Below, one piece after another: positions 504 through 34,393 of a stretch of 64,000 nt of DNA. Source of the DNA: an uncultured Candidatus Sumerlaeota bacterium (GTDB taxonomy: Bacteria > Sumerlaeota > Sumerlaeia > SLMS01); NCBI GenBank assembly GCA_964346275.1, contig CAYFUR010000003.1:47011-111010 (forward strand), read 5' to 3'. Position 1 is the stretch's first letter; every line of letters starts with the position of its first letter. A program made the translations under genes and the position numbers. Under the pieces are notes generated by a model, which saw only the letters and a list, made by a program, of their open reading frames with translations, was not told the origin of the DNA and searched no databases.

Positions 504-1379
504 ATGGCTTCCACTCTCTCAAAAGACCTCAAACCTTCCGCGGCCCGAAAACACCGCGTGCTTCGTCCGCGCCGTGGATTAATCCCGATCGATTTCGAGG
601 AGCTCTGGCGCTATCGCGAGCTTCTCTTTTTTCTGACATGGCGGGATATCCTGGTGCGCTACAAGCAGACGCTCCTCGGCATCTGCTGGGCCGTGCTCCA
701 GCCTGTGCTGATGATGGTCGTCCTGACCTTTGTTTTCGGGAAGATGGGCAAATTCCCCAGCGAGGGAAAGCCCTATGCCGTGATGACCCTCGCCGCGCTC
801 CTCCCCTGGCAGTTCTTTTCCAATGCCCTGACGCAAAGCAGCAACTCCGTGGTGAGCGCCGGCAACATGATCCGGAAAGTTTACTTTCCCCGGCTCTACA
901 TCCCCATGAGCGCGATCCTCAGCGGAGTCGTTGATTTTCTCATCGCGATTGGGATTCTGTTCGCCCTCATGATTTACTTCGATGTCCCCTTCCGGCCGCA
1001 CCTCCTGATGCTTCCGGCCTTCTTCCTGGTGGCCCTCCTGGCATCCTTTGGGGTGGGCTTGTGGTTCGGGGCATTGAATGTGAAATATCGCGATGTCAGA
1101 CATATCGTGCCCTTTCTCGTCAGAGTAGGAACCTATCTCAGTCCGGTGGGCTTTCAATCCAGAATTGTGCTCGATAATTTCGGCCCGACCGCACACTTTA
1201 TATACAGCTTGAATCCCATGGTGGGCGTGATCGATGGATTTCGCTGGGCAGTGCTCGGGCCGGAATTTGAACCTTACTGGCCCGCGTTCCTGGCAAGCAT
1301 GGCCATGGTGCTCGTGCTGACCATTTCTGGAATCTATTATTTCCGCGCCTTTGAAAGGACCTTTGCCGACGTCATCTGA
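504..1379 (+). CDS. wzm: ABC-2 type polysaccharide/O-antigen export permease
   Basis: ATG at 504. 291 aa with 6 predicted TM helices; resembles the ABC-2 (Wzm/KpsM/TagG) family. Immediately followed by a cognate ATPase. Confidence 0.85.
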   Translation: MASTLSKDLKPSAARKHRVLRPRRGLIPIDFEELWRYRELLFFLTWRDILVRYKQTLLGICWAVLQPVLMMVVLTFVFGKMGKFPSEGKPYAVMTLAALLPWQFFSNALTQSSNSVVSAGNMIRKVYFPRLYIPMSAILSGVVDFLIAIGILFALMIYFDVPFRPHLLMLPAFFLVALLASFGVGLWFGALNVKYRDVRHIVPFLVRVGTYLSPVGFQSRIVLDNFGPTAHFIYSLNPMVGVIDGFRWAVLGPEFEPYWPAFLASMAMVLVLTISGIYYFRAFERTFADVI

Positions 1380-1401
1380 CGACTCAGGCGCCCGCTTTTC
1401 T

Positions 1402-2640
1402 ATGAACGAATCCGTCATTTCCGCGCGCGGCCTCTCGAAGAAATTTCGCCTCGGGGCAACTCTGCGCCACAATACCTTGAGAGACAAGATAAGCCACACG
1501 GTCCGATCCATGGCAAACCGCGCTTCCCGGGAGAAAACCCCGGGGGATTATAGCCGCGGGGGAAACAAAAAAGAGTTCTGGGCCCTGCGGGATCTTTCTT
1601 TCGATATATACGAGGGGGAAGTTGTCGGCATTATCGGCCGGAACGGCGCGGGCAAGTCGACCCTGCTGAAAATCCTCAGTGAGATCACCGACCCCACGGA
1701 GGGCGAAGTCCACCTGTCCGGGCGCGTCTCGAGTCTGCTTGAGGTGGGAACGGGTTTTCACCCAGAGCTTTCTGGCCGGGAAAATGTCTATCTTAATGGC
1801 GCGATTCTCGGTATGTCGCGCGCGGAGATTCGGCAAAAATTCGATGAGATCGTTGCCTTTGCCGAAGTAGAGCGTTTCCTGGACACCCCGGTGAAGCGCT
1901 ATTCCTCGGGCATGTTTGTTCGCCTCGCCTTCGCCGTGGCGGCACACCTGGAACCGGAGATTCTTCTGGTGGACGAGGTGCTGGCCGTTGGCGATGTAGG
2001 CTTTCAGCGCAAGTGTCTCGGCAAGCTGGAAGAAATCGCCAGCAGCGGACGCACCGTCCTTTTCGTCAGCCACAATATGGGCACCGTGGAAACCCTGACC
2101 CAGCGGGCGATCTGTCTGGAAGAAGGGCGCATCATGGCGGAGGGCGAATCGCGATCGACGATCCGCCGTTATCTGGATTTTATCGAAAGCTCGGTCCTCT
2201 CCGAGGAGCACCAGCACGACAAACTGCTGCGCATCAGGCTCATGCGCGATGGAGAGCCGGCCACCGCTGTTCGCATGGGCGATCCACTGACCTTCGAAAT
2301 CACCTACAATCTCCCTGAAACGCTCCGGAATCCGGTGATCGGCATTGGTATCTGCAACGAGCAAAACGTGCGCGTTTTCAGCCTGAGCATGTGGTATGAT
2401 GGCGAACGAATCACCGAACTGGCCGGACGCGGAACAATCCTTTGTGATGCGGGCGATGTTCCGCTCAACCAGGGCATTTATTTTGTGAAACTCGTGCTCA
2501 CTCAGGACCGGCGGGACATTGACGTTTCCGATCCGGCACTGCGTTTTGAGGTCGTGCCGACTGACGTTTTCGGAAACGGGGTCATCCCGACACGCAGCCA
2601 GGGCCTGATCTATACATCCGCAAAGTGGACCTTTCATTGA
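1402..2640 (+). CDS. wzt: Polysaccharide ABC exporter ATP-binding protein with C-terminal extension domain
   Basis: ATG at 1402 (the ORF frame starts at 1351). Walker A 'GRNGAGKSTLLKIL', an ABC signature and Walker B 'LLVDE'. About 170 extra C-terminal residues beyond the nucleotide-binding domain, consistent with a Wzt-type carbohydrate-binding C-domain. Confidence 0.85.
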   Translation: MNESVISARGLSKKFRLGATLRHNTLRDKISHTVRSMANRASREKTPGDYSRGGNKKEFWALRDLSFDIYEGEVVGIIGRNGAGKSTLLKILSEITDPTEGEVHLSGRVSSLLEVGTGFHPELSGRENVYLNGAILGMSRAEIRQKFDEIVAFAEVERFLDTPVKRYSSGMFVRLAFAVAAHLEPEILLVDEVLAVGDVGFQRKCLGKLEEIASSGRTVLFVSHNMGTVETLTQRAICLEEGRIMAEGESRSTIRRYLDFIESSVLSEEHQHDKLLRIRLMRDGEPATAVRMGDPLTFEITYNLPETLRNPVIGIGICNEQNVRVFSLSMWYDGERITELAGRGTILCDAGDVPLNQGIYFVKLVLTQDRRDIDVSDPALRFEVVPTDVFGNGVIPTRSQGLIYTSAKWTFH

Positions 2641-3329
2641 TGAAGGCTTTGCTGAAGGCCCAGGTGCGCCAGGAAAACGCAAGAGGCGAATGGTCTCAAT
2701 CTTATCGCGAAACCCTGAGAATTCGGGAAATCTATCCGCATATATGGGACATCCCCCTTTCTCGCGGACTTCAAACGATTCTTCAGAACCACCTGGCCAA
2801 TCAATCAGGTCCGTTGCTCGACTTCGGCGCTTCCGAAACCTCTCAAGTCCGGGCTCATTTGCAAGGCTTGGCCCCGGAGATGAATTACTTCAGCATGGAT
2901 ATTGATCGGCAAACGCGCCAGGATTATTACTCCTGGGATGAAATCGATCGAGAATTCTCTACCATCCTCAGCTCTGAAGTCATCGAACACATGAGCTATA
3001 CAGATGTCGTGGGCTTTCTTTCGAATGCGCAGGAATCCCTGGCCCCGGGCGGTCTGCTGATTCTGACAACTCCCAACATTTTCCATCCCACCCGCTTTCT
3101 TCAGGACCCCACCCATCAGACTCCCTGGAATTACGATCACCTGGGTGGCGAGTTGCTTGTTGCGGGGTTCGACCTCCTGGCATTCTATCGCTTTGGAGCA
3201 CCGAATGCCCCGCGGCATTTGAGAGGAAAGTTTTCTCAATTCTTCATGGGCAAGGTCCGAAAAAACCTGGGTCTGGACAACGCAAAGAGCATTTGCTGTG
3301 TCGCCAGAAAACCACAGCAGGCGGTCTGA
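2640..3329 (+). CDS. Class I SAM-dependent methyltransferase (candidate glycan-terminus modifying enzyme)
   Basis: ATG at 2640 overlaps the wzt stop (TGATG); an alternative GTG lies at 2625. A methyltransferase type 11/12-like core: 'LLDFGASE' (motif I-like) and 'GGLLILTTPN' (post-motif II). Confidence 0.6.
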   Translation: MKALLKAQVRQENARGEWSQSYRETLRIREIYPHIWDIPLSRGLQTILQNHLANQSGPLLDFGASETSQVRAHLQGLAPEMNYFSMDIDRQTRQDYYSWDEIDREFSTILSSEVIEHMSYTDVVGFLSNAQESLAPGGLLILTTPNIFHPTRFLQDPTHQTPWNYDHLGGELLVAGFDLLAFYRFGAPNAPRHLRGKFSQFFMGKVRKNLGLDNAKSICCVARKPQQAV

Positions 3330-3340
3330 ATCGTTCGATT

Positions 3341-4420
3341 ATGACTGGTCTTTTGAAAAAAGCCTATTGGACTTGGAAGTCAGCCTCACTTTCTCGCGCA
3401 CAAACACGCTCCCACTTCCTGGATTTTCCGGACCCTTCGCCAAAACACCGCATCGGATGGGTGCTCGCGGGAAATGAGTGGCTCGGAAGTGCCCGGGTGA
3501 AGGGGTTCCTGATCGACGAATCTTTGCAGCAGGCCGAGGAAAACTTTGTGAGCAGGATACTTTACCACCCCTCAGATGGGGACTATCTCCACTCCGCACT
3601 GGAATGGAAACCGGAACACTGGAGGCCCTTTCTGCAACGGCTCGATGTCCTTTGTTTCCAAACCCGGAGTGGCTATACAGAGCAGCTCCTGGAAGATTGC
3701 CGGGCGCATGGTGTGAAGACAGTGTTTTCTATCAGTGATCTCCAGATCCACAAAGTGCCGGAAAGTGTTTTTAGATTAAGCGATGCCGTCGTGACTTCAT
3801 CCCCGTTCCTGCGCGACCAGCTCCTGCCCTATCACTCGCAGGTTTTCGTTATCGACGATCCTCTCGAGGTCCCCGCGGGCATGCATCGAGTCGAACATGA
3901 TCGCCGCAACCAGCCACAGGTTGTCTGGTTCGGCCATCCTGGCCATTGGAACCACGTCGAGTTTCTTAAAGATGCTCTGCGGTCGCCAATGCTAAATGGA
4001 TATACGCTCAAAACGATTTCCCGGCACCCGGAAGCCTCTGTCCAGTGGCATCCGAAGACTGTCTGGCACGAGCTCCAGGACGGGGATATTGCCGTCATTC
4101 CCTGTGATCTGGACCAAAATGGAAAAGCGAAGTCGAGCAATCGCCTGACGGCACTCATGAAACTGGGCTATCCCGTCGTTGCAACGCCCATCCCCGCCTA
4201 TCAGCCTTATATACAACATGGAGAAAACGGATACTTTGCCACGGACCGGGAAAGCTGGATCCAGAGTCTGGCGCGCCTCGCCGATCAGAGTTTGAGACAG
4301 GAAATCGGCAAAGCGGCCCGAGAAACGGAGGCTTTGCGAGAAGTGGAACTGGCCTCTGTCCGGCGGAGATGGGAAAAGCTTTTCAACCGTCTTCTCGAGG
4401 ATCACTGCGACACCCGATGA
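3341..4420 (+). CDS. Putative GT-B-fold glycosyltransferase (divergent)
   Basis: ATG at 3341 (the ORF frame is open from TTG 3293). The C-terminal region 'NRLTALMKLGYPVVATPIPAY...HGENGYF' resembles the C-terminal sugar-donor-binding half of GT-B enzymes. No confident family assignment by eye. Confidence 0.4.
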   Translation: MTGLLKKAYWTWKSASLSRAQTRSHFLDFPDPSPKHRIGWVLAGNEWLGSARVKGFLIDESLQQAEENFVSRILYHPSDGDYLHSALEWKPEHWRPFLQRLDVLCFQTRSGYTEQLLEDCRAHGVKTVFSISDLQIHKVPESVFRLSDAVVTSSPFLRDQLLPYHSQVFVIDDPLEVPAGMHRVEHDRRNQPQVVWFGHPGHWNHVEFLKDALRSPMLNGYTLKTISRHPEASVQWHPKTVWHELQDGDIAVIPCDLDQNGKAKSSNRLTALMKLGYPVVATPIPAYQPYIQHGENGYFATDRESWIQSLARLADQSLRQEIGKAARETEALREVELASVRRRWEKLFNRLLEDHCDTR

Positions 4421-5181
4421 TACTTGTCTATCACCATGTCTCTCCTCTTGCTTCTGTGCCCGCCCCCGAGGAACGGGAACACAACGAGGGATGGGAATAC
4501 ACGATCGCGCCGGAAGCCTTCCGCAATCAGCTCCAACTTCTTCGGAAAAGGGGCTTTCGATTCATCTCGCTCGATCATCTGGCAAGCCTTCTTCTCCAAG
4601 GCGAAAACGAACCCGCCGACACGATCGTGGTGACTTTCGATGATGGGTGGATAGACAACTGGAACCACGCATGGCCCATCCTGAAAGAGCTCGAAATACC
4701 GGCAACGTTTTTCGTCACGACCGAACATCTCCGTAAAGGCGCCATGGTCGAAGGCAAAAAGATGGGACCGAAAGCGCTGCTCAAGCTGGCGGAATCCGGC
4801 ATGACCATTGGCGCCCATACGCGCACCCATGCGGATGTTTCCCGCGTTGCGAAAGAGATCGCCCGGGATGAGATCGCCGGAAGCCGGGAGGACCTGGCGA
4901 ACGTGCTGGGAGAACCGCCCCGCTTCTTCGCTTATCCAGGCGGAGCTTTTAATCGCCCGGCCGCGGACCTTGTTGGCGAGGCTGGCTATACAGCGGCCTG
5001 TTCCGTCGTCGGAGGTGGCCGTAACACACCGGGCGACCGATATTGGCTCTACCGGACGGTGCTGTCCGAGCGGCTGAATACTCTCCGTGATCGAATTTTT
5101 CTCTCGCCGCTGGCTCGGCCTTTCCTTAGCTCGCGAGCGAAAAGAACGACGGCGGCACTTCTCGGCCAGCGAAATGGCTGA
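4417..5181 (+). CDS. Polysaccharide deacetylase (NodB/CE4 family)
   Basis: ATG at 4417 overlaps the upstream stop (ATGA). 'VTFDDGW' carries the CE4 catalytic Asp-Asp pair; 'IGAHTRTH' is a metal-binding His motif. Confidence 0.8.
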   Translation: MILVYHHVSPLASVPAPEEREHNEGWEYTIAPEAFRNQLQLLRKRGFRFISLDHLASLLLQGENEPADTIVVTFDDGWIDNWNHAWPILKELEIPATFFVTTEHLRKGAMVEGKKMGPKALLKLAESGMTIGAHTRTHADVSRVAKEIARDEIAGSREDLANVLGEPPRFFAYPGGAFNRPAADLVGEAGYTAACSVVGGGRNTPGDRYWLYRTVLSERLNTLRDRIFLSPLARPFLSSRAKRTTAALLGQRNG

Positions 5182-6241
5182 AACCGCCAAGCCAAAGCTC
5201 AGCGTCCTCATGGCCGTCTATAACGGTGAAACGTATTTACGCGAAGCATTGCATGGCCTCCTCGGGCAGTCCTTCGAGGACTTCGAAGTGATCGCGGTCG
5301 ATGATGGGAGCACGGATTCGACGTTTGCTATTCTCGACGAATACGCCGCGCGGGATATCCGCATTCAAGTTGTCCGCAGCGAAAGAAACGAAGGGCTTGC
5401 CAAGGCCCTGAACCGCGGCCTTTCGCATTGCCGGGCAGAGTATGTGGCGCGCGCGGACGCGGACGACATTTCGTTGCCGGAACGGTTCGAGACACAATTG
5501 AACTTCCTGAAAGACAACCCCCAAACCGGGGTCCTGTCGTCCGCTTCTCTATCCATTGATGAACACGGAAAAGAGGGGGGATGGTCCATCCCTTCCCTGG
5601 ACCACGATGAGATTCAATTCCGCCTTCTCTGGATGTCTCCGATAAACCACGGTGCCGTTATGTATAGACGCCGTCTTGTGGAAGAGGCTGGTGGATATCA
5701 TCCGGATTTCTGGACAGCCCAAGACTACGAGCTTTGGAGCCGCCTCTCCGGAAAGACCCGCTTTGCAAACATCGAACGCCCGCTCATAAAGTATAGACGC
5801 CACTCGGATCAAACAACGGCAACCCGAGGGGATGGGGGCGCCTCCCTGAGCCGGCAAGTCTCGCAACGCCTGCTCCGCGACTACCTTCGCCGGGAGGTCG
5901 GCGAGGAGGAAACCCAACTCATCCGCCAGATGCTCAATGCCTTCGACCCCCTCGAACCCCGTGATTACCGCCCCGCGCTTGAATTATTGAAAGAATTGAT
6001 CGAGGAAACAGACCATCGGGGCGACGCTCGCACCAGCCGTCTTGCCCACAGGATTTTCGCGGGCTCGTGTCTCAAGCATTCGGTCATGCTCAGCTATCGC
6101 AATCCCGCGAGGAGCCGCCTGCTTTTCCGGGAGGCGGCGTCTCTTCATCCCCAATTGCTTCTTTCCCGGACTTCCCTGAAGCAGGCGATGCGCCTCTGTA
6201 TCCTCGGCCCTTGCCGGCGATTCAAGAGCCCTGTCTCATGA
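5174..6241 (+). CDS. Family 2 glycosyltransferase
   Basis: ATG at 5174. 'LSVLMAVYNGETYLREAL...FEVIAVDDGSTDST' is a canonical GT-A N-terminus; the DAD motif is present. Confidence 0.85.
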   Translation: MAETAKPKLSVLMAVYNGETYLREALHGLLGQSFEDFEVIAVDDGSTDSTFAILDEYAARDIRIQVVRSERNEGLAKALNRGLSHCRAEYVARADADDISLPERFETQLNFLKDNPQTGVLSSASLSIDEHGKEGGWSIPSLDHDEIQFRLLWMSPINHGAVMYRRRLVEEAGGYHPDFWTAQDYELWSRLSGKTRFANIERPLIKYRRHSDQTTATRGDGGASLSRQVSQRLLRDYLRREVGEEETQLIRQMLNAFDPLEPRDYRPALELLKELIEETDHRGDARTSRLAHRIFAGSCLKHSVMLSYRNPARSRLLFREAASLHPQLLLSRTSLKQAMRLCILGPCRRFKSPVS

Positions 6242-7443
6242 GTTCTTCTTCAAAGAAGCAGAGAGTGCTCCTTGTGGCCCCCGTGGGCTTTGGCGGCATC
6301 CAAACCTGGTGTTTGCATTATGCGAAGGCTCTGCGCGAGATGGGAAGTTTCGAGGCGGACGTCTTGTTTGAATGCTATGGTAAGACATCATCATCCAACA
6401 GACAGAGCGAAAATGAACAGGATTATACATCGGTCTTTTCCTATGGCGCGAAGGAAAACCGGTCCCATGTTTGCCGACGGCTTATTCGAACTCTCTCCAG
6501 CTACCACGTTGTCTATCCGAATACCAGCGGCATGACCTATCACGCGCTTGCACGGATGGGCGCAAAGCGGCCTGTCGCCATCGGAGCCTGCCGGGGAGAT
6601 TTCGAACACGACTACGGCACGCTTCAGATGTTCGAGCCTTACCTCGACGCAATCTTCACCGTGAGCGATCTCTGCCTTCGGGAGTTGGAATCCCGCCTCG
6701 CCGGAACAAGTCTGCCCATGACAGCCATTCCCCACGGCTCGGATCCAGGCTTGTGTAGACAAAATCCCAATGGCCCACTTCGGCTCGCTTTCACGGGGCG
6801 CTTTGCCCCGGTGAAGCGACTGCCCGACCTCGTTGAGATTGCCGGCCTCCTCAGGCAAGAGGGAGTCGGTTTCCGCCTCACCCTGGCGGGCGACGGCCCT
6901 CTCAAGGACGAATTGAAGCAACTTACCGAGACGAAAGATTTGGGAACGCATATCGATTTTCCCGGGAAACTGGAAACCCGCCAGATCGCCGAACTCCTCT
7001 CTGAATCCCATTGCCTCCTCTTGCTTTCCGAGCGGGAAAGCTTTGGGCTGAGTGCTCTTGAAGGAATGGCCCACGGCGCCGTTCCAATCGTCTCCAACAC
7101 CTGTGGCTGCCGGGAAGCGATTCAGCATGGCGAGAACGGCTTTCTTGTTTCTCCAGGCTCAATCGAAGAGGCCGCGCGCCACATAATTGCTCTGGAGCGG
7201 GACCGCGAAAGCTGGCAGCGGTTTTCGAATGCAGCCCGTGACACGGTGCGAAAGAAATACTCGGCCTCGCAAATACTCGAGAGGAACCTCGCATTCCTGG
7301 AGCAGGCAAGAGAGCGGCACCGCCTGAAGGTCATGGAAACACCCAATCATGTTCCCCCCTTTTCGCGCCTCGACCATCCTTTTCTGCCAAACGCGGCGAC
7401 GAAACTGCTGCGAACGGCTTTCAAGAGAGGAGGGTCTGTATGA
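6238..7443 (+). CDS. Family 1 (GT4-like) glycosyltransferase
   Basis: ATG at 6238 overlaps the upstream stop. 'ESFGLSALEGMAHGAVPIVSNTCGCREAIQHGENGFLV' is an EX7E-type GT4 C-terminal motif. Confidence 0.85.
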   Translation: MSSSSKKQRVLLVAPVGFGGIQTWCLHYAKALREMGSFEADVLFECYGKTSSSNRQSENEQDYTSVFSYGAKENRSHVCRRLIRTLSSYHVVYPNTSGMTYHALARMGAKRPVAIGACRGDFEHDYGTLQMFEPYLDAIFTVSDLCLRELESRLAGTSLPMTAIPHGSDPGLCRQNPNGPLRLAFTGRFAPVKRLPDLVEIAGLLRQEGVGFRLTLAGDGPLKDELKQLTETKDLGTHIDFPGKLETRQIAELLSESHCLLLLSERESFGLSALEGMAHGAVPIVSNTCGCREAIQHGENGFLVSPGSIEEAARHIIALERDRESWQRFSNAARDTVRKKYSASQILERNLAFLEQARERHRLKVMETPNHVPPFSRLDHPFLPNAATKLLRTAFKRGGSV

Positions 7444-8300
7444 CCGCGCCCCTGGTCAGCGTTCTCATGACTCTTTACAATCGCGAACGGTTTGTCTCCC
7501 AGGCGATCGAAAGCGTTCTCGCCTCTTCATTCGAAGACTTCGAACTGATCATCGTCGATGACGGATCGACTGACAGAAGCCTCGAGATTGCCCGCGGGTT
7601 TGAAGGCGACAGACGAGTCAGGGTTCAGCGGAATGAGAAGAACCTCGGTGATTACGCAAACCGAAACCGCGCGGCAAGCCATGCGACGGGCAAATACCTG
7701 AAATACATAGATTCCGATGACCTGATCTATACACATGGCCTTCAGGTCATGGTGCAATGCATGGAAGAACATCCGGATGCCGCCGTGGGAATCTGCAAAG
7801 GAGAAACCCGCAAAGAGCCTTATCCGATCCGCCTGACACCCCGGGAGGCCTACAAGCAGCACTTTTCCGGGAATGGCCTGCTGTCCAATGCGCCCACGTC
7901 CACGATTTTCCGCCGGGATGCTTTTCAGGAAATCGGGGGTTTTCGAGAGGATCTTTACTTCGGCGATTGCGAGCTTCTTCTGAAACTGGCCGCTCAATTT
8001 CCCATTCTGCTTCTTCCAGCGGGCCTGGCCTGGTGGAGGCAACATGGCAGCCAGGGGAATGCGAACCACCGTGATGTGCGCGCCTTTGGATCCCTTGCGT
8101 TCCGCGTTGAACGGGAAAAACTCACCAGCCCCAATTGCCCCCTTTCGCCGGAGGAACGCGCGCAGGCCATGCGCTGGCTGAAAGGCATTCAAACCCGCCG
8201 CCTTGCCAGGAAAAGCATCCGCCAGCCTGCCGCCGCCCTGGATCATTGGAACAAAAGCGGGCTCAAGCCGGCTGATATACGGTATCTTTTCTCTCGATAG
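7440..8300 (+). CDS. Family 2 glycosyltransferase
   Basis: ATGA overlap with the upstream gene. 'VSVLMTLYNRERFV...FELIIVDDGSTD'. Confidence 0.85.
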   Translation: MTAPLVSVLMTLYNRERFVSQAIESVLASSFEDFELIIVDDGSTDRSLEIARGFEGDRRVRVQRNEKNLGDYANRNRAASHATGKYLKYIDSDDLIYTHGLQVMVQCMEEHPDAAVGICKGETRKEPYPIRLTPREAYKQHFSGNGLLSNAPTSTIFRRDAFQEIGGFREDLYFGDCELLLKLAAQFPILLLPAGLAWWRQHGSQGNANHRDVRAFGSLAFRVEREKLTSPNCPLSPEERAQAMRWLKGIQTRRLARKSIRQPAAALDHWNKSGLKPADIRYLFSR

Positions 8301-8303
8301 CCC

Positions 8304-10423: not shown

Positions 10424-10429
10424 ACACCG

Positions 10430-14138: not shown

Positions 14139-15562
14139 GACCCGCATCCTTCTTTGCCCGCATTCCCCCAGAAGTATTTCTCGCTCTGGGACTGGCATTC
14201 ATTTTTTTGGCTTTCATGCCGCCCGCGATTTTCTCTGCAGACGGGAATTCCATGCTCGCCGTCACGGAATCAATTATCAATGATGGCGACTTCACAGTGC
14301 CTCCGGAATCCGGCGTTCCCGGCACCGGCGGGCACTTTTACTCTCAGTGGTATCCCCTTTTATCTATTCTGGCGGCGCCTTTCGTGCTCATCGGACAAGG
14401 GTTTGCTCTCTTTGCCGGGGTTGATACTCATCATGGAGCGGTCATGGGAGGGCTTGCGCTGAACGCCCTTCTCTCTTCCGCCGCGGCGGCCCTTGTTGTG
14501 TTCTTATCAAAGCGGCTGGGAGGGCCACCGCGACTCGCCTATACGGCTGGCATCGCCTATGGCCTGGGGACTTTCGCGCTTGTCTATGCTCAAAAATTCT
14601 TTGCAGAGCCCCTTCTGGCTCTGTGCGGGCTGGGGGCGTTTCTCGGAGCGTTTCAGCGGAGCCGCGGAGGAATTTGGCTCTGTTTGGCTTGTTGCGCCCT
14701 CGCCGTCCTCGCCAAACCGACGGGGGTTCTCTTTTCCCCCCTTCTTGCAGCTTATCTTTTCTTAAACCGCCGCTCTCTGATCGACACCATATATCCACTG
14801 GTGGGGATGCTGGCGGGCCTTGTTGTCTCTATGGTTTACAACCAAATCCGGTTTGGCAGCTCCCTCGATTTCGGCAACCGGCCGGGATTCGGGCTCTCGG
14901 CCTTTTTCGAGGCTTTTCCCGGCCTGCTTCTCAGCCCCGGCTACGGCTTGATCTGGTATTCACCGGTTATCCTCTGCCTCTTGTTCCTGCCCAAGGCGGC
15001 CTTGCGAAAAGCAGAGGTTCTCGCAATCCTCAGCCTTTTCGTAACGCTGTGGGTATTCTATGCCTGCAGACCTGTCGACTGGTTCGGCGGATGGTCCTGG
15101 GGGCCACGCTTTCTGCTCCCGGCCCTGGCGCTCCTCGTCCCGGTCGCGCCCCTGATGCGCAAACGATATGCAGCCTTGCTGCCTCTCCTCGCGGCCATCG
15201 GACTGGTGTTGCACCTTCCCACTCTCTTCACGTATTACGAGCGCGTCTATATGCTATCGGGCGATGGAAGCCCATCGGGCGAGGAACTCGCCTGGAGCTT
15301 TCGCAGTGCCCCCTTCCTCGCGATCTGGCCGGAAACGGCCGAGCTTCTGTTTGATGAACGAAAAGTCGATCCGTCAGACTACTTCAACACAGAGGACACG
15401 AGACCGGAAGGTTTACTGACGGAGACGATCGCGGCCTGGTGGTATTTCCTGCCAGGGCTGGGAGTCCCGCGCCTGATCAGTGCTGCCGTCCCATTGTTTC
15501 TATCCGCGCTGGGGGGGCTTTCTATTCTTTGGGGATTCCGATTGCTTCCGCGCGACACATGA
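14135..15562 (+). CDS. Polytopic membrane protein, putative GT-C-fold glycosyltransferase
   Basis: ATG at 14135 overlaps the stop of the previous gene (ATGA). The first-loop acidic motif 'SADGNSMLAVTESIINDGDF' is followed by many TM helices, consistent with lipid-linked-sugar-dependent GT-C enzymes. Confidence 0.4.
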   Translation: MRPASFFARIPPEVFLALGLAFIFLAFMPPAIFSADGNSMLAVTESIINDGDFTVPPESGVPGTGGHFYSQWYPLLSILAAPFVLIGQGFALFAGVDTHHGAVMGGLALNALLSSAAAALVVFLSKRLGGPPRLAYTAGIAYGLGTFALVYAQKFFAEPLLALCGLGAFLGAFQRSRGGIWLCLACCALAVLAKPTGVLFSPLLAAYLFLNRRSLIDTIYPLVGMLAGLVVSMVYNQIRFGSSLDFGNRPGFGLSAFFEAFPGLLLSPGYGLIWYSPVILCLLFLPKAALRKAEVLAILSLFVTLWVFYACRPVDWFGGWSWGPRFLLPALALLVPVAPLMRKRYAALLPLLAAIGLVLHLPTLFTYYERVYMLSGDGSPSGEELAWSFRSAPFLAIWPETAELLFDERKVDPSDYFNTEDTRPEGLLTETIAAWWYFLPGLGVPRLISAAVPLFLSALGGLSILWGFRLLPRDT

Positions 15563-16641
15563 AACCTCTCTGCCTGGCAGCCTATTCTTTTCGCAAAGGG
15601 AATGGCGGTATCGCCCAGGTTTCCAGAATGATTGCCCGCGTTCTGACGGAAGAGGCGGAGGCTCTCGGCATCGCTCCCCGGCTGCTTGCTTTCGAGGATG
15701 AATCGCCCCCGGATGGTATTCCCTTTCCGTTTTCCACGGCCAGGGGTTCCGCCCTCCGATATGCTCTCTTGGTCCGCCGCCACGCGCTTTCCGGCTGTGA
15801 TTTTCTTTACGATTCCTGCAATATGGCCCAGGTTCATCCCCGCCTGCCCGGCCTCAATCGCCGCAATCTGATCATGATCAATGGAATCGAAGTCTGGGAA
15901 GATGCCAAGGACCGCTGGTTGCGGGCGGCCCGGAATGCAACAATGCTTGTGTCTATATCAGAACACACAAGAGAAAAGGCGGAAAAACTCCATGGCGGCT
16001 TTTCACGCGCACGGGTGTGCTGGCTTGGAACCGATACGGACCAGGAGCCGGAAGTGACTTCTTCCCGGCCGGCGTCGGACGCGCCGCCCCGCGCCCTGAT
16101 CGTCGGACGCATGGAATCCCATGAGGCCTACAAGGGCCATCGCGAGTTGATCGATGCCTGGCCCGCCGTTCTACCCGAAGTGCCAGATGCCCAGCTTCAT
16201 ATCGCCGGAAAAGGATCCGGTGTTGAGGAACTGAAGACGATCGCCGAGAATTCCGGAGCCGAGCGCTCTATCGTTTTCCACGGCTATGTCTCATTCGATG
16301 ATCTGGAGAAACTCTATCTGGATTGCCGCCTCTACGCCATGCCCAGCCGCGGAGAAGGGTTCGGCCTTGTGTATATCGACGCCATGCGCTTTCGCCGCCC
16401 CGTGATCGCTTCCAATCGCGATGCCGGACAAGAAGTGGTCGCTCATGGCGAGACCGGCTACGTCGTCGATCCAGAAGACATCGAGGGTCTGGTCGAGAGC
16501 GTCGTCCGCTTGATGAAGGATCCGGAGCTGGCAAGCCGCCTCGGCGACAAGGGCTTTCAACGCTGGAAAGAGCATTTCACGTATAGCGCTTTCAAGCGGC
16601 GCTTTCTGCCTCTCCTGGAACATTTTGTGACGGCCTGGTAG
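15559..16641 (+). CDS. Family 1 glycosyltransferase
   Basis: ATG at 15559 overlaps the upstream TGA. 'GEGFGLVYIDAMRFRRPVIASNRDAGQEVVAHGETGYVV'. Confidence 0.85.
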   Translation: MKPLCLAAYSFRKGNGGIAQVSRMIARVLTEEAEALGIAPRLLAFEDESPPDGIPFPFSTARGSALRYALLVRRHALSGCDFLYDSCNMAQVHPRLPGLNRRNLIMINGIEVWEDAKDRWLRAARNATMLVSISEHTREKAEKLHGGFSRARVCWLGTDTDQEPEVTSSRPASDAPPRALIVGRMESHEAYKGHRELIDAWPAVLPEVPDAQLHIAGKGSGVEELKTIAENSGAERSIVFHGYVSFDDLEKLYLDCRLYAMPSRGEGFGLVYIDAMRFRRPVIASNRDAGQEVVAHGETGYVVDPEDIEGLVESVVRLMKDPELASRLGDKGFQRWKEHFTYSAFKRRFLPLLEHFVTAW

Positions 16642-16642
16642 C

Positions 16643-17809
16643 TTGCACATCGCTCATTTTATTCCCTACTCCGGCAGTGCCCAGGGAGGCCCCGTAGTGG
16701 CTCTGGCCGGCATGACCGCCGCACTGCACAAACGCGGCCACGGCGTTTCCCTTTTCAGCGTCTCCCGCACTCAGGACGGCCCGCAAATGGCATTCAATGG
16801 TGCCGTGGATCTGCAAACGGCGACCACGTCGCGGCTTGGATCTTTTCGGTGGTCACCGGAACTTCATGGAAAAGCCCGATCGGCCAGGCCGGATATTGTC
16901 CATTCCCATTGCCTCTTTACGGACGTAAACAGATTGGCCGGGAAAACGGCCCGGCGTGTTGGCGTGCCGCATCTCATCGCCCCCTGCGGACACCTTCAAC
17001 CCGACGCTCTCAAACGCTCCGCATGGAAGAAACACCTCGCCATGGCAGCCTTCCAGCGCCGATTTCTCAGGCGGGCGGACTGCCTTCACGTAAAGTCCGA
17101 GCAGGAGCTTGCAGGCGTGCGGAGCGCCGGATTCAAGGGGCCAGCGGCGCTCATCCCAAATCCTGTCGTGCCCCTCGGCCAGGATTGTCTCGACACGGAA
17201 TCTTTTCGAAAACGGCTCGGCCTCAAAAGCGAAGAGAAAATCATCCTGTTTCTGGGAAGAATTCATCCCGTCAAGGGGCTGGACCCCCTGGTTGAGGCAT
17301 GGAGCCGCTTAGCCAATCAATACGGAACCTGGAGGCTGGTGATTGCCGGGCCGGACGAGGGAGGGTTCCAGAGTGAGATCCTTTCGAAAGCGAAGGAAAA
17401 GGGATGCGCCCATTCCATTTGTTTCCCGGGACCGCTGGACGAGAAGACCAAGTGGAGCGCTTACGCTGCATCCGACCTTTTCGTCATGCCCAGCGATTTC
17501 GAAAATTTCGGGCTTTCCATCGCCGAGGCTCTATCGGCGGGACTCCCTGTGATCGCGTCGGATGGGACTCCCTGGAAAGACCTGCCCACCGCAGGCGCGG
17601 GTTGGTATATACCACGAACCGTCGAAGCCCTCGTGGAGGCCCTGGAGGATGCGATGGGCCTCCCGGATGAAAAAATTGGGGACATGAAAGGCCGTGCTCG
17701 CCACCTGGCCGAAGCGTATAGCCCTCAGGAAATTGCCTTCCGGCTCGAAGCTGTCTACTCGTGGCTTCTGGGCCAGGGCCCGAGACCCGAATGTGTTACT
17801 GGTTCTTGA
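16643..17809 (+). CDS. Family 1 glycosyltransferase
   Basis: TTG start 1 nt after the upstream TAG; no nearby ATG. 'FENFGLSIAEALSAGLPVIASDGTPWKDL'. Confidence 0.8.
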   Translation: MHIAHFIPYSGSAQGGPVVALAGMTAALHKRGHGVSLFSVSRTQDGPQMAFNGAVDLQTATTSRLGSFRWSPELHGKARSARPDIVHSHCLFTDVNRLAGKTARRVGVPHLIAPCGHLQPDALKRSAWKKHLAMAAFQRRFLRRADCLHVKSEQELAGVRSAGFKGPAALIPNPVVPLGQDCLDTESFRKRLGLKSEEKIILFLGRIHPVKGLDPLVEAWSRLANQYGTWRLVIAGPDEGGFQSEILSKAKEKGCAHSICFPGPLDEKTKWSAYAASDLFVMPSDFENFGLSIAEALSAGLPVIASDGTPWKDLPTAGAGWYIPRTVEALVEALEDAMGLPDEKIGDMKGRARHLAEAYSPQEIAFRLEAVYSWLLGQGPRPECVTGS

Positions 17810-17813
17810 TCCA

Positions 17814-18380
17814 ATGAAAAACGAGCAACCCCTCATACGGACGAATCAAGCATCCACGCTCAGCCTTCGAAACCGCCTGGGTCGGGCATTGTGGCAGATC
17901 GTGTGGGTGCTCTTGTTCCGCCTTTCTCCCGTTCCTTTTCATGGGTGGCGGCGCGGCCTTTTGAGGCTCTTTGGCGCCCGGATCGGAAGACGGGCCAAGG
18001 TCTATCCCTCCGTATCGATCTGGGCGCCATGGAATCTGACAATGAAAGAGGGAGCCGTGCTTGCCCCTCATGTCATCTGTTATTCGGTGGCGAGAATCTC
18101 CATCGGCCGCGAAACCACGGTGTCCCAGTATAGCCACCTCTGCGCAGCCACCCACGATTTCGAAGACCCTGCGTTCCCCCTTGTGAAGAAACCAATTCGT
18201 ATAGAAAATCAGGTCTGGATCGCTGCCGATGTCTTTATCGGGCCGGGCGTCACCATCGGCGAAGGAACGGTGGTGGGCGCGCGTTCCAGCGTCTTTACAA
18301 ACCTCCCGCCATGGGAGATCTGCCTGGGGACGCCTGCCAGGCCAGTCCGCGAACGCAAAATCAAACAACCGAAATCATGA
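17814..18380 (+). CDS. Hexapeptide-repeat acetyltransferase (WcaF/colanic-acid-type)
   Basis: ATG at 17814. Left-handed beta-helix repeats 'VWIAADVFIGPGVTIGEGTVVGARSSV'. Confidence 0.8.
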   Translation: MKNEQPLIRTNQASTLSLRNRLGRALWQIVWVLLFRLSPVPFHGWRRGLLRLFGARIGRRAKVYPSVSIWAPWNLTMKEGAVLAPHVICYSVARISIGRETTVSQYSHLCAATHDFEDPAFPLVKKPIRIENQVWIAADVFIGPGVTIGEGTVVGARSSVFTNLPPWEICLGTPARPVRERKIKQPKS

Positions 18381-19699
18381 AAAAAGAAGAAGCCGCCTCT
18401 CCTGCCCCCGGGCCCATCGTCATCCTCTGTCATTACTTCTGGCCCGAGGAAATGGCCACCGCCGAGATGGTTTCCGGCGTTGCCTTTGAGCTTTCGAAAC
18501 AGGGGCTTCCAATAGCGGCCATTGCCGGCCAACCCGCTTATCGCAACCGTGGGGCGTTTCTTCCCCGCACAACTTCTCAGCATGGGGTGGTGATTCGCCG
18601 TGTTTGGTCGACGCGGTTTAACAAGAACAACCCCGCCGGAAGGATCCTGAATACAGCCACGTTCGCGGTCTCCGCCTTTCTGGCCGCCTTGTTCTTTCCC
18701 AACCCCGGAGGATATCTGGCCGTCACCAACCCTCCCCTGCTGCCATGGGTGGCTGCCCTTGTTGGATTCCTCCGGCGCCGCCCCTGCTATTTGCTGATCC
18801 ATGATGTGTATCCCGAAATTGCCATCGCCCTCGACAAGATACCGCCTGGCTCGGCGGTGGCCCGTTTCTGGGGATGGCTCAATCGCCAATGTTATCGGCA
18901 AGCCGACCGTATTATCGTTTTGGGGAGCTGTATGGCCCGGGCGATTCATCCCTATTTGCGCGAATCAGAACGGGACAAGACGGTTATCATTCAGAACTGG
19001 GCAGATGGCGAAAGAATCCAGCCCGTCCCGTCGGGTGAGAACCCGCTGCTCCAGGAACTGGGGCTTGAGGACAAATTCGTCGTCTCCTATTCGGGGAACA
19101 TCGGGCTTTTCCATGAAATCGAGACGATCGCGAAAGCGGCCAAGGCGCTCGAAAATCGAGCGGATATTCATTTCCTTTTCATCGGCGACGGCGCGCAGCA
19201 CGTCTGGCTGAAGAACTTCCTGGAAGAAGAGAAACTGGCAAACGCCACGCTCCTTCCTTTCCAGCCGAAAGACCGGCTTCCGACCACCCTGACGGCATGC
19301 GATGCGGGCCTGGTCAGCTTGAAGGACGAAGCCACGGGCTATTGCGTTCCCAGCAAGTTCTACGGCATGTTGGCGGCCGGCAAAGCCATCATCGCGATTG
19401 CAAATGAAGCGAGCGAAGTCGCGGAGGCAGTCCAGCGCCACGGGTGCGGCATGGTGATTCCCCCGGGGAACGCCGGGCTTCTCCGCCAGGCAATTGAGTC
19501 CCTTGCGAAGGACAAGACAAGAGCCCAGAAAATGGGTTCAAAAGCCAGAATTGCATTTCGTCAAAATTATTCCCTTGCAAAAACAGTCGCTAAATACATA
19601 GAAACACTGACTTTCAAAAGCGAAATCCCCTGCCAAGTAGGTGGGAATTCTCCGGAAATTCAGGACAAAGACTCGCGTGCCTCCCAAATTCGGCCCTGA
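18377..19699 (+). CDS. Family 1 glycosyltransferase (WcaI-like)
   Basis: ATGA overlap. N-terminal 'IVILCHYFWPEEMATAEM' and a typical GT-B C-terminal half. Confidence 0.85.
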   Translation: MKKEEAASPAPGPIVILCHYFWPEEMATAEMVSGVAFELSKQGLPIAAIAGQPAYRNRGAFLPRTTSQHGVVIRRVWSTRFNKNNPAGRILNTATFAVSAFLAALFFPNPGGYLAVTNPPLLPWVAALVGFLRRRPCYLLIHDVYPEIAIALDKIPPGSAVARFWGWLNRQCYRQADRIIVLGSCMARAIHPYLRESERDKTVIIQNWADGERIQPVPSGENPLLQELGLEDKFVVSYSGNIGLFHEIETIAKAAKALENRADIHFLFIGDGAQHVWLKNFLEEEKLANATLLPFQPKDRLPTTLTACDAGLVSLKDEATGYCVPSKFYGMLAAGKAIIAIANEASEVAEAVQRHGCGMVIPPGNAGLLRQAIESLAKDKTRAQKMGSKARIAFRQNYSLAKTVAKYIETLTFKSEIPCQVGGNSPEIQDKDSRASQIRP

Positions 19700-21167
19700 A
19701 GAATTCTCCATACGCAAACAGTCCCCAGCCGCGGCTGAATCCGGTCCCGCTGTTGATCCGTATCCCGCATTCCGCGCGGAGAGCCCACCGGCGGAATTGC
19801 CAGCGGCTCAAAGAGCCGCGCGGAGCGCGACCAAGTATTTCATCCGGGCCAGGACGAGCCGCTGGATCACTTGGGATGCGTTCGTCGCATTTCTCTCCCT
19901 CACCCTGGGCTATGCCCTTTCGCCAAAGGCGGACATCTTTCCCGGGGCTCCTGTCCAAGCACTCCTCGCCTATCCTTTTCTTGCCATGGCAGCAGGACAG
20001 GTGGCGGGCCTGTACGAACGGCAGATCCTCCTCAGCGGTGCGCGCCTTCTTTCATCAGCCATCGTTTCCGGCCTTCTCTCGGTCGTCTTCCTCGTCTTAT
20101 TCTACAATTTTGTCCTCTTCGAGCCAGCAGGCCGCTGGGTCCTCCTGATCACGGCAAGCTGCTTTTTCTTTGGACTTTCCGCTCTTCGCTTCCTGATCCA
20201 TTTCCTCGGACGTTTCTACAAAATCCGTGTCCTGATCGTCGGAAAAAACGAAGGCCACAACCCGGTTGTCCGCCATCTGACCATGGGCGACCGCCACCAC
20301 GTTCTCGCGGGCTTTTGCAACGTTCATGGAAAGGCCGATCATGATCGATATGTCGGACATTTGGATAATTTGCCGGCCTTGTGCCGCCGTTACGACATAG
20401 ACGAAGTCCTTGTCTCCGAAGAATTCCTGAACGAATCAGACGTTCTCGAGAAATGCTTCGGTCTCCTCGATATGGGAGTCACGGTGCTGGACGAGTGCTC
20501 TTTCTTTGAACAGACTTTCGAGCAAGTCCCCGTCGAGCGAATCAAGGGGGCCTGGTTCTTCAACGCCAAGATCGGCCAGCAAAAATCCTTCGACGTTTTC
20601 CTCAAACGCCTCATGGATATCGTTCTCTCCCTGGTGGGGATCTTGTTGCTCGCCCCCGCCGCCCCCCTTATCTGGCTGGCAATTCGCCTGACTTCTCCCG
20701 GCCCGGCAATCTATACACAGATTCGTGCGGGGCAATTCGGCAGGCCATTTCGGATCTACAAGTTCCGCACGATGCGCCTGGACGCGGAAAGGAATGGCCC
20801 GGTCTGGGCTTCGGAACGCGATCCACGCATCACGGCGGTTGGCCGACTGCTTCGAAAGACAAGGCTCGACGAAATCCCCCAGTTTTGGAATGTACTGAAA
20901 GGGGACATGTCCTTCGTCGGCCCGCGGCCGGAGCGGCCCGAGCAAATCCACCGGATTGAGCAAAAAGTCCCCTATTTCGGTTACCGTCACTGGTTCCGGC
21001 CGGGAATCACGGGCTTGGCCCAGGTGCGTTATCCCTACTCCGCGAGCGTGGAAGATGCGAAGACGAAACTTCAACACGACCTGTATTACCTCAAGAATTT
21101 CAACATTCTGCTGGATATTCAGATTATCATGAGAACGGCTGCGGCCATCATGAAGGGCGCACGCTAA
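19641..21167 (+). CDS. Polyprenyl-phosphate hexose-1-phosphate transferase (WbaP/WcaJ 'bacterial sugar transferase' family), initiating enzyme
   Basis: C-terminal catalytic domain: 'SPGPAIYTQIRAGQFGRPFRIYKFRTM', 'DEIPQFWNVLKGDMSFVGPRPERPEQ'. N-terminal TM helices. The true start is uncertain; the longest frame overlaps the upstream gene by 59 nt. Confidence 0.85.
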   Translation: MGILRKFRTKTRVPPKFGPEEFSIRKQSPAAAESGPAVDPYPAFRAESPPAELPAAQRAARSATKYFIRARTSRWITWDAFVAFLSLTLGYALSPKADIFPGAPVQALLAYPFLAMAAGQVAGLYERQILLSGARLLSSAIVSGLLSVVFLVLFYNFVLFEPAGRWVLLITASCFFFGLSALRFLIHFLGRFYKIRVLIVGKNEGHNPVVRHLTMGDRHHVLAGFCNVHGKADHDRYVGHLDNLPALCRRYDIDEVLVSEEFLNESDVLEKCFGLLDMGVTVLDECSFFEQTFEQVPVERIKGAWFFNAKIGQQKSFDVFLKRLMDIVLSLVGILLLAPAAPLIWLAIRLTSPGPAIYTQIRAGQFGRPFRIYKFRTMRLDAERNGPVWASERDPRITAVGRLLRKTRLDEIPQFWNVLKGDMSFVGPRPERPEQIHRIEQKVPYFGYRHWFRPGITGLAQVRYPYSASVEDAKTKLQHDLYYLKNFNILLDIQIIMRTAAAIMKGAR

Positions 21168-23562: not shown

Positions 23563-23715
23563 GAGTCTTGTCTCTCCCGTCTGCCTGCGCCATCAGGCAG
23601 GCGCAAATCCGGCGAAGATTTGCCGATCCGTGGCCTTGTTACAATGAGAAACTCGTCATCCTCGCCCAGAAATCTCAGGGGTTTTATCGAGGAAGCCGGG
23701 CCGCGGAGCAGAGAA

Positions 23716-29860: not shown

Positions 29861-29870
29861 GGTTATCGGG

Positions 29871-32556: not shown

Positions 32557-32573
32557 CCTGGAAGCAGGTCACT

Positions 32574-34352: not shown

Positions 34353-34393
34353 CGCCGAACCATCTCCGAAAGAAGGATCTGTCCTCCGCCCCG

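Follow-up and report, generated by a model that had tools for sequence, protein, structure and literature searches.

A conserved glycan operon of a microbial-mat bacterium in which a Wzm/Wzt exporter may occupy the place of a Wzx flippase

In the textbook view, each bacterial surface glycan is the product of one of a small number of routes that exclude one another, and in the O-antigen clusters of Escherichia coli wzx/wzy and wzm/wzt are strict alternatives (PMC7685785). A 64-kb stretch of DNA from an uncultured Candidatus Sumerlaeota bacterium (contig CAYFUR010000003.1, positions 47,011 to 111,010; the whole stretch is called the window and its own numbering is used below) carries an operon at 504-21167 that encodes the ATP-binding cassette (ABC) exporter pair Wzm/Wzt together with a Wzy-family membrane protein and a WbaP-type initiating transferase, next to a gene for the chain-length kinase Wzc. 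This co-occurrence had been claimed in an initial annotation of the window and is real by gene content. What remains unusual, on the predicted functions, is the presence of a Wzy-family gene, Wzc and Wza where the sole translocase of the locus is Wzm/Wzt, while sister clusters have Wzx. We tentatively read the operon as one assembly line in which Wzm/Wzt takes the place of Wzx and feeds the Wzy/Wzc/Wza route, an interpretation to which we would give somewhat less than an even chance. The broader proposal, that in a conserved family of Wzy/Wzc/Wza clusters (in this mat bacterium, Pyrinomonadaceae and others) Wzx has given way naturally to Wzm/Wzt and that this constitutes a fourth assembly route, is somewhat unlikely in our estimate. 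All the parts are of known kinds; it is their combination, and its conservation, that is new, and a literature search returned no account of native clusters with Wzm/Wzt and Wzy and without Wzx.

The 504-21167 array comprises 19 genes, all on the plus strand (Table 1), and the co-directional array described in the initial annotation was borne out by family searches and gene calls. Start codons were picked by means of stop/start overlaps and are concordant with independent gene calls on sequence-identical metagenome contigs; the exact 496-aa product of the initiating transferase is present in public gene calls. Tight coupling had been claimed at 13 of the 18 junctions: the coupling stood and the count did not, since 15 of the 18 lie within 8 nt (1-8 nt overlap or 1-6 nt gap). 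Eleven of these were counted as 4-nt overlaps (the listed gene coordinates give nine), and the others comprise one 8-nt overlap, one 1-nt overlap and gaps of 1, 3, 4, and 6 nt. The three looser junctions are a 22-nt gap between wzm and wzt, an 11-nt gap between the methyltransferase and the following glycosyltransferase (GT), and a 23-nt overlap between the last GT4 gene and that of the polyprenyl-phosphate hexose-1-phosphate transferase (PGT; GTG start at 19677). Promoter-like and terminator-like sites within the array showed no excess over shuffled sequence. The array is real, and is most simply a single transcription unit. It encodes 11 transferases of the GT-A or GT-B fold (three GT2, seven GT4-type and one Glyco_trans_1_2) and one of the GT-C fold; of the approximately 12 transferases claimed initially, the 11 were confirmed, and the GT-C enzyme at 14135-15562 had gone unrecognized. 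An ArnC-like gene, a Wzy_C gene upstream, a tetratricopeptide repeat (TPR) protein and Wza had also been overlooked and, together with the GT-C, they alter the model.

Hallmarks of both export routes were found. Those of the ABC pathway are an ABC-2 permease with its cognate ATPase and a Wzt_C domain with an adjacent methyltransferase, a candidate cap enzyme; a third trait of that pathway, the lack of a Wzy-type polymerase, does not apply, a Wzy-superfamily gene being found inside the operon and in sister clusters. The PGT is an initiator as found in the Wzx/Wzy pathway, but this feature is not exclusive to it: the WbaP-type transferase, taken initially as a Wzy-pathway hallmark, is not diagnostic, as the ABC-dependent cluster for the S-layer glycan (slg) in Geobacillus stearothermophilus has one too, which shows that such an initiator can share a pathway with Wzm/Wzt (PMC2943079).

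The polytopic protein encoded at 12651-14138 gives no significant direct match in Pfam, NCBIfam or the Protein Data Bank (PDB), and is called Wzy-like because remote relatives match Wzy-type models. Word-indexed homologue searches, whether with the single protein or a 45-sequence profile, recovered one or two relatives only (one at 64% identity), while an exhaustive search of 1.8 billion representatives recovered 1013 remote relatives at 25-33% identity. Among 45 full-length relatives, TIGR04370 ('oligosaccharide repeat unit polymerase') is matched by 12, NF046084 ('exosortase Y-associated Wzy-like protein') by eight (best E 1.2e-11), PF14296 by nine and PF01901 by two. Matches to other models are weak and few, comprising DUF6418 in two of the 45 (best E 0.0029) and DUF2368 in one (E 0.0065). 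The initial designation of this protein as a Wzy-like polymerase candidate, on which searches with hidden Markov models were run, rests on remote relatives and not on a direct family match. A confident AlphaFold (AF2) model computed with the family alignment (pLDDT 87.6, pTM 0.89) is predicted to have about 12 transmembrane (TM) helices, with both termini placed inside by the positive-inside rule. A loop of ~120 residues (260-380) between TM9 and TM10 holds conserved residues; all 45 relatives share R268, R312, P328, G336, K355, and G391, while R349 and E385 recur in at least 90% of the 45 and are invariant in an eight-sequence alignment (A2). A loop with conserved Arg, Lys, and Glu is the architecture expected for Wzy/WaaL-type enzymes, and the model is consistent with it. 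In sequence searches of the PDB, none of the queries (the Wzy-like and GT-C proteins, each also as a profile, the upstream Wzy_C protein, a 597-aa membrane protein and the candidate flippases) returned a match.

The convergent downstream gene was correctly described as encoding a Wzc tyrosine autokinase. In addition to its domains, the polysaccharide co-polymerase (PCP-2a) at 21253-23562 has the full set of kinase motifs, with Walker A, A', and B and a C-terminal tyrosine cluster, YGYGYGHPYGY. The region upstream of the window was read from window-identical contigs of microbial-mat metagenomes (L002), where a divergent operon (2386-6950, minus strand) encodes two cohesin-domain proteins, Wza (Poly_export PF02563 plus SLBB) and a 202-aa NusG paralogue. 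Wza lies 6 kb upstream of the window, and the pair of PCP-2a and outer membrane polysaccharide export (OPX) proteins typical of the Wzx/Wzy pathway is present. Directly before wzm stands the Wzy_C gene, which begins upstream of the window and is preceded by the gene for a membrane-anchored TPR protein of 427 aa. A Wzb phosphatase was not found in the locus. The inventory therefore consists of Wza, Wzc, the PGT, two Wzy/WaaL-type membrane proteins, the GT-C and Wzm/Wzt. The two cohesin-domain proteins and a giant SdrD_B-repeat protein are encoded upstream, and none of them could be linked to the glycan as its target.

Related loci argue for a single system. The Wzy-like alignments A1 and A2 proved too variable to scan loci with, and a genome scan with the single Wzy-like protein as query found nothing; a metagenome scan with the Glyco_trans_1_2 protein (GT1_2, g11) proved decisive and found five loci with the layout of the window (L099, L102, L104, L107, and L108). 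These represent at least three lineages by mutual identity, their GT1_2 proteins being 58-80% identical among the five. The common layout is wzm-wzt, 8-9 kb of transferases, and then GT1_2-GT4-Wzy-like-GT4-GT4-...-GT4-initiating transferase. Orthologues of Wzm head L102, L107, and L108 (45-48% identity to the window protein), and Wzt is 44-48% identical over 348-389 of 412 aa, C-terminal domain included, in L102, L104, L107, and L108. GT1_2 is 57-59% identical to that of the window in all five, and g12, directly upstream of the Wzy-like gene, 52-55% identical in three (L099, L102, and L107). L102 and L108 have a WecA-like transferase in the initiator slot, and in L107 a Wzc fragment immediately precedes wzm. 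Against the family profile, the Wzy-like proteins of the five loci score 95-109 bits, and those of L099 and L108 carry the NCBI name 'O-antigen polysaccharide polymerase Wzy [Pyrinomonadaceae bacterium]'. Apart from one 457-aa protein in L104, no other polytopic protein was found in the five.

More distant relatives extend the synteny to both halves of the operon. The neighbourhoods of six remote Wzy-like relatives are rich in GT4 genes, nearly always have a Glyco_trans_1_2 gene and a GT4 gene beside the Wzy-like gene, and contain specific matches to g10, g11, g12, g15, g16, and g17; a Polysacc_synt protein is not on record in any of the six. GT1_2 adjoins the Wzy-like gene in most of the related loci examined and can be regarded as its signature partner. 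Three further loci (L148, L150, and L153) retain a syntenic set of the operon's genes, grouped with the Wzy-like family or, in L150, with a different polymerase-like gene. Syntenic there are the deacetylase (50-52% identity; L150 and L153), g08 (47-51%; all three) and g09 (33-40%; L150 and L153); g09, g10, and g11 together span 29-41% in this set and g16 spans 39-45% (43-45% in L010, L014, L016, L148, and L153), while L148 also has g17 (59%) and g18 (29%), the latter in a like relative position in L102, L108, and L148. Syntenic homologues of g15 occur in related loci, and g10 has specific best matches in the loci of Wzy-like relatives. Because genes of both operon halves are syntenic with the Wzy-like gene elsewhere, one product is indicated rather than two. 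The initial annotation had left a choice between two glycans from one operon and a hybrid pathway; the former is weakened by the deacetylase, GT2s, GT4s, GT1_2, Wzy-like protein and acetyltransferase being syntenic as one block, and the latter is favoured by the comparative data, as an interpretation of gene content. As to whether the wzm/wzt and wzy/wbaP halves occur separately, a question raised at the same time, Wzm/Wzt and the Wzy-like gene are together in the five loci, and close Wzm/Wzt orthologues also occur near GT-C homologues with no Wzy-like gene (L017, L020, and L024). An origin of the operon as a mosaic of separately occurring ABC and Wzy modules was considered and set aside, since the closest relatives carry both in like order and synteny extends to the transferases of either half.

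Five other loci with the same GT1_2 (L154, L160, L169, L178, and L168) have a Wzx-type flippase, in each case inside the cluster. In the first four it belongs to a family with 12 TM helices whose 90%-identity cluster members are named 'O-antigen/teichoic acid export membrane protein' by JGI, and in L168 it is a WzxC-like protein. The Wzy-like family is also present in two of these loci (L154 and L169), and L154 has Wza, Wzy_C, and Wzc divergently arranged, as in the window. No examined locus carries both Wzm/Wzt and a Wzx-type flippase.

The window conforms to this pattern. A search for Wzx, a check set beforehand, gave no candidate in the window or in the 10 kb upstream, a total of ~74 kb of the source organism: no polytopic open reading frame (ORF) matched Polysacc_synt or MurJ, and a profile of the Wzx-type family of the sister clusters had no match in the window. 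(A home-made profile from three E. coli Wzx proteins of the MOP superfamily was too insensitive, and the sister family was recognized by mutual similarity and JGI names.) In the window, the polytopic ORFs comprise the Wzy-like protein, three GT-Cs (that of the operon and two ArnT-like ones), LptF/G, an ABC-2 permease and one 597-aa protein 40 kb away, and the sole polytopic ORF of the upstream 10 kb is Wzy_C. It could be supposed that two conventional pathways are merely adjacent, a standard Wzx/Wzy/Wzc/Wza system with its Wzx elsewhere having been fused transcriptionally to an ABC O-antigen module without cross-talk, and we leave this a slim chance. Only part of the genome was covered, genes for lipopolysaccharide (LPS; LptF/G, ArnT-like, PAP2) lie nearby in the window, and among more distant relatives of the Wzy-like module, seven of 12 fully flanked loci have neither transporter within 10 kb, indicating that transporters can lie outside such clusters. 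However, the wzm-wzt ... Wzy-like layout is kept at 45-59% protein identity, in like order and orientation, in at least four lineages, so that accidental adjacency loses support; moreover, a Wzx-type gene, when present, sits inside the cluster and never with Wzm/Wzt, and 4-nt overlaps run throughout the operon.

A further possibility, which we consider unlikely, is a pure ABC pathway. Synthesis and capping of the whole polymer would take place in the cytoplasm, Wzm/Wzt would export it, the Wzy-like protein would be a WaaL/PglL-like periplasmic transferase to an acceptor, the Wzy_C/TPR pair would serve a second acceptor, and the GT-C would decorate the chain after export. Wzy, WaaL, and PglL all take undecaprenyl-diphosphate (Und-PP)-linked glycan donors at the periplasmic face, and the Wzy-like protein could instead be a ligase; in L102 and L108, which are without a Wzy_C gene in 21 kb, it could be the only one. 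The Wzt_C domain and the methyltransferase gene right after wzt fit cap-dependent export of whole chains (PMC9445017, PMC3482155), the order TPR-Wzy_C-wzm-wzt-methyltransferase-GTs-WbaP is that of the ABC-dependent slg cluster (PMC2943079), and decoration of ABC-exported O antigens by a GT-C is known (PMC11127046). Nevertheless, the Wzy-like family matches polymerase models only and not ligase models, and relatives occur in Wzx-containing clusters such as L154 that have a separate Wzy_C, where a polymerase role is natural. In addition, Wzc with an intact kinase domain and Wza normally go with Wzy-dependent polymerization, and eleven transferases are many for a processively made polymer.

The GT-C gene overlaps the Wzy-like gene by 4 nt. 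Its product has 126 homologues at ~40% identity, some with PF13231 or PF02366 (PMT/PMT_2) and some with the NCBI name 'glycosyltransferase family 39 protein'; D36 in the first loop is invariant across them, and hhalign to an ArnT-like protein of the window gave E 7e-4. From these similarities the protein is assigned as a GT-C glycosyltransferase; a single-sequence AlphaFold model was unusable (pLDDT 44). Upstream of wzc, on the same strand, lies the ArnC/GtrB-like gene (23716-24714), whose product matches NF007986 (E 2.7e-65) and NF047588 (5e-44), both below the equivalog cut-offs, and which may serve the ArnT-like enzymes encoded at 29871-34352 rather than the GT-C of the cluster. A plus-strand ORF at 23401-24681 (426 aa) was rejected as a gene: it is of odd composition, has no family match, lies on the strand opposite the ArnC-like gene and extends over the start of wzc, and is almost certainly not a gene. 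Two parts of a three-component Gtr-type system, the synthase (23716-24714) and the GT-C, were seen, and a small GtrA-like or SMR-like flippase ORF (3-4 TM) was not found in the cluster.

These genes invite comparison with dual-chain assembly, in a Gram-negative version of which a Wzm/Wzt-exported polymer and a second, polyprenyl-built chain polymerized by the Wzy-like protein and Wzc would be joined by the GT-C. We regard this as quite unlikely. Its appeal is that the Lactococcus cell-wall polysaccharide (cwps) locus has an ABC-exported rhamnan, a polymerase, a chain-length regulator and a chain-linking GT-C, with the second chain started by a GtrB/ArnC-like enzyme (PMC10821137); here, the Wzy-like and GT-C genes overlap, the ArnC-like gene adjoins wzc, and L017, L020, and L024 have a GT-C homologue and close Wzm/Wzt orthologues within 10 kb of each other and no Wzy-like gene there. 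Opposing it, the transferases of both halves form one syntenic block around the Wzy-like gene in other loci, and the GT-C of the window is a lineage-specific insertion, because a g15 homologue directly follows the Wzy-like gene in L012, L016, L102, and L108. Since it is absent from these and from L107, it cannot be integral to the conserved design. Furthermore, the GT-C family was found at 80 genome loci (Acidobacteriota, 'Deltaproteobacteria' metagenome-assembled genomes, Cyanobacteria and others), in none of which is the Wzy-like family present.

Several observations on the GT-C family stand in their own right. The 457-aa polytopic protein of L104 occupies the same slot as the window GT-C and has a weak likeness to the GT-C profile (hhalign E 4e-4); in this locus two extra genes (14935-17755) lie between the Wzy-like gene and the g15 homologue, and this position may be a hot spot at which periplasmic transferases are gained. 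In ~45 cyanobacterial loci (L032-L091; Coleofasciculus, Leptolyngbya and relatives) a GT2 gene lies ~100-300 bp after the GT-C homologue and matches the ArnC-like query at E 1e-9 to 1e-15, which looks like a conserved two-gene pair for periplasmic glycosylation. Wza and Wzc are encoded beside the GT-C in L017, L029, and L030. L017 (GCA_052390235.1, JBQTHB010000002.1 12008-33507), from a Deltaproteobacteria metagenome-assembled genome, is an independent co-directional array of Wza, Wzc, a NusG paralogue, a methyltransferase, a GT2, the GT-C (43%), sugar-nucleotide genes, Wzm, and Wzt, the last two scoring 256 and 328 bits, respectively, to the window proteins; OPX and PCP-2a proteins thus recur with Wzm/Wzt without the Wzy-like family within 10 kb. 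The NusG paralogue at 7539-8060 lies inside this Wza-Wzc ... GT-C ... Wzm-Wzt array and, with that of L002, suggests RfaH/UpxY-like antitermination of long operons.

For the single assembly line that we tentatively prefer, a mechanism can be proposed. The WbaP-type transferase, whose enzyme family is established, would start the glycan on undecaprenyl phosphate, and the 11 cytoplasmic GTs, the deacetylase, acetyltransferase, and methyltransferase would build a large decorated Und-PP-linked block at the inner membrane face. The block would be moved by Wzm/Wzt, with the C-terminal glycan-binding domain of Wzt perhaps acting as a completeness check. In the periplasm the Wzy-family protein would join blocks head to tail under the control of the Wzc tyrosine kinase, and the GT-C would add a sugar, drawing on a polyprenyl-phosphate donor that the ArnC-like enzyme supplies. 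The product could then exit via Wza or be handed to an acceptor by the ligase-like Wzy_C/TPR pair. An engineered precedent for an ABC-fed Wzy pathway exists in the ABC flippase Wzk, with which an E. coli wzx mutant regains O16 antigen (PMC2841628). As a general route, with lipid-linked blocks checked by the Wzt glycan-binding domain, exported by the ABC transporter and polymerized by Wzy in the periplasm, the scheme is, to our minds, on the doubtful side.

A number of points weigh against it. The case rests wholly on gene content, and Wzx could be encoded elsewhere in the genome, beyond the ~74 kb covered. The either/or pattern of transporters is drawn from six versus five loci, many with partial flanks, and the seven fully flanked loci with neither transporter fall outside it. 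The Wzy-like proteins of ABC-type and Wzx-type clusters are very divergent (95-109 versus 40-44 bits), and their function may differ. Foldseek comparison of the Wzy-like model with the PDB and BFVD (viral) structures gave noise (TM-score ~0.1) and no WaaL or Wzy, and hhalign of the family against E. coli WbbH and the upstream Wzy_C was negative, although this hhalign outcome is expected for single sequences so divergent and is uninformative. If each of the eleven transferases is used once, the repeat unit would be unusually large. Where a known Wzt has a glycan-binding domain, what it exports is a finished, capped polymer of cytoplasmic origin rather than a repeat unit (PMC9445017, PMC3482155), and the Wzk/PglK precedent is an ABC architecture unlike Wzm/Wzt.

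Table 1. Genes of the operon and associated glycan genes in the window.
Feature	Coordinates	Strand	Basis
Wzy_C protein (O-antigen ligase/PglL/WsaB family), C-terminal end; gene starts upstream of window	3..314	+	full gene 483 aa, L002 8360-9811; PF04932 E 8.5e-11
Wzm, ABC-2 type permease	504..1379	+	PF01061 E 4e-19; weak match NF050109
Wzt, ABC ATPase with C-terminal Wzt_C carbohydrate-binding domain	1402..2640	+	PF00005; PF14524 56 bits (cut-off 30.4); start ATG 1402
SAM methyltransferase (Methyltransf_23), candidate capping/decorating enzyme	2640..3329	+	PF13489 E 2.3e-8; 1-nt overlap with wzt stop
GT4-like glycosyltransferase (weak)	3341..4420	+	PF13692 E 1.7e-6
Polysaccharide deacetylase	4417..5181	+	PF01522 E 6e-29
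GT2 glycosyltransferase	5174..6241	+	PF00535 E 1e-35
GT4 glycosyltransferase	6238..7443	+	PF00534 E 2.5e-36
GT2 glycosyltransferase g08	7440..8300	+	PF00535 E 2.8e-33
GT2 glycosyltransferase g09	8304..9251	+	PF00535 E 2e-36
GT4 glycosyltransferase g10	9248..10423	+	PF00534, PF13579
Glyco_trans_1_2 (GT1_2, CgeB-like) glycosyltransferase g11	10430..11494	+	PF13524 E 1e-26
GT4 glycosyltransferase g12	11491..12654	+	PF00534 E 1e-29
Wzy-superfamily polytopic membrane protein g13	12651..14138	+	remote relatives only
GT-C fold glycosyltransferase (GT39/83-like)	14135..15562	+	homologues with PF13231 or PF02366
GT4 glycosyltransferase g15	15559..16641	+	PF00534 E 2e-36
GT4 glycosyltransferase g16	16643..17809	+	PF00534, PF13579
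WcaF-like hexapeptide O-acetyltransferase g17	17814..18380	+	NF007797 182 bits (cut-off 192), PF00132
GT4 glycosyltransferase g18	18377..19699	+	PF00534, PF13579
Polyprenyl-phosphate hexose-1-phosphate transferase (PGT, WbaP/WcaJ type), initiating enzyme	19677..21167	+	PF02397 E 2e-66; TIGR03025 364 bits (cut-off 295)
Wzc, PCP-2a co-polymerase with bacterial tyrosine kinase (BY-kinase) domain, convergent with operon	21253..23562	-	Wzz, GNVR, AAA_31 domains; TIGR01007 166 bits (cut-off 108)
ArnC/GtrB-like polyprenyl-phosphate sugar synthase, upstream of wzc	23716..24714	-	PF00535 E 3e-36

The deacetylase is probably cytoplasmic, as a hydropathy scan, which was used rather than a signal-peptide predictor, shows no hydrophobic (TM-like) segment. 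Beyond the ArnC-like gene, a sigma-54 enhancer-binding response regulator with a weak match to the VpsR domain (27111-28625; PF20161 E 6e-5) lies between the glycan cluster and a probable lipid A/LPS modification block, and is a candidate for control of the polysaccharide genes. The block (28730-35515) encodes an NAD-dependent epimerase/dehydratase, a PMT_2 GT-C (29871-31640), a PAP2 phosphatase (31630-32556, minus strand), an ArnT-like GT-C (32538-34352; NF009784 E 6e-42, below the cut-off) and LptF/G (34394-35515). Further along the window, an ABC ATPase, an ABC-2 permease, an ABC_transp_aux protein and a DUF4340 protein (52101-57159) form a GldG-like accessory transporter set that appears unrelated to the glycan operon. 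The 597-aa protein (60518-62311), with ~11 TM segments, is encoded directly after mnmE and has no match in Pfam, NCBIfam or PDB sequences.

Should the single assembly line be true, the translocation step would be an exchangeable module in nature, and the clusters would provide a natural setting in which to study recognition by Wzy polymerases and by Wzt glycan-binding domains, as well as parts for the glyco-engineering of large repeat units. It would also mean that pathway annotation from single marker genes can mislead in environmental genomes. If the Wzy-like protein is instead a ligase, it would represent a new ligase family for ABC-exported glycans.

Set beside known systems, the cluster shares features with each and is identical to none. 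With ABC-dependent O-antigen systems that have a cap-recognizing Wzt, such as E. coli O9a/O8 and Aquifex WzmWzt, it shares the ABC-2 permease, the Wzt_C ATPase and a methyltransferase beside wzt (PMC3482155, PMC9445017); those known, however, are without a Wzy-family protein, Wzc or Wza, use few and often multidomain polymerizing transferases and usually start with WecA, whereas the window cluster combines 11 separate transferases and a WbaP-type initiator with a Wzy-like protein and a PCP-2a kinase. The slg cluster of G. stearothermophilus NRS 2004/3a has the order WsaA (TPR)-WsaB (Wzy_C)-wzm-wzt-transferases with methyl-capping-WsaP (PMC2943079), and the same gene set, TPR (427 aa)-Wzy_C (483 aa)-wzm-wzt ... 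PGT, is found here. That cluster is Gram-positive, has four rhamnosyltransferases and is without a Wzy-like candidate, GT-C, Wzc or Wza, while no S-layer or target protein was identified in the window. The group 1 capsule and colanic acid pathway (WcaJ/WbaP, Wzx, Wzy, Wzc, Wzb, Wza) resembles it in the WbaP/WcaJ initiator, the many single transferases, the WcaF-like acetyltransferase, the Wzy-family protein, Wzc with its Tyr-rich tail and Wza, and differs in that the window locus has Wzm/Wzt, with no Wzx or Wzb found there.

The Lactococcus cell-wall polysaccharide and the streptococcal and enterococcal rhamnopolysaccharides are alike in having an ABC exporter, a polymerase, a chain-length regulator, a GtrB/ArnC-like enzyme and an outside-acting GT-C (PMC10821137), but these dual-chain Gram-positive loci keep a Wzx-type flippase for the second chain and are without Wza or a BY-kinase Wzc, and the GT-C of the window is an insertion confined to its lineage. 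GT-C systems (Gtr, Gml and the pentofuranose three-component systems) likewise have a GT39/83-like GT-C and a polyprenyl-phosphate sugar synthase near an ABC-dependent cluster (PMC11127046), whereas in the window no small GtrA/SMR-type flippase ORF was found and the synthase gene adjoins wzc at a distance of 8 kb. Wzk and PglK, as fused half-transporters, belong to a different ABC class, and in their case the substitution was engineered and not a native cluster design; the likeness lies in an ABC flippase that is able to supply a Wzy polymerase (PMC2841628).

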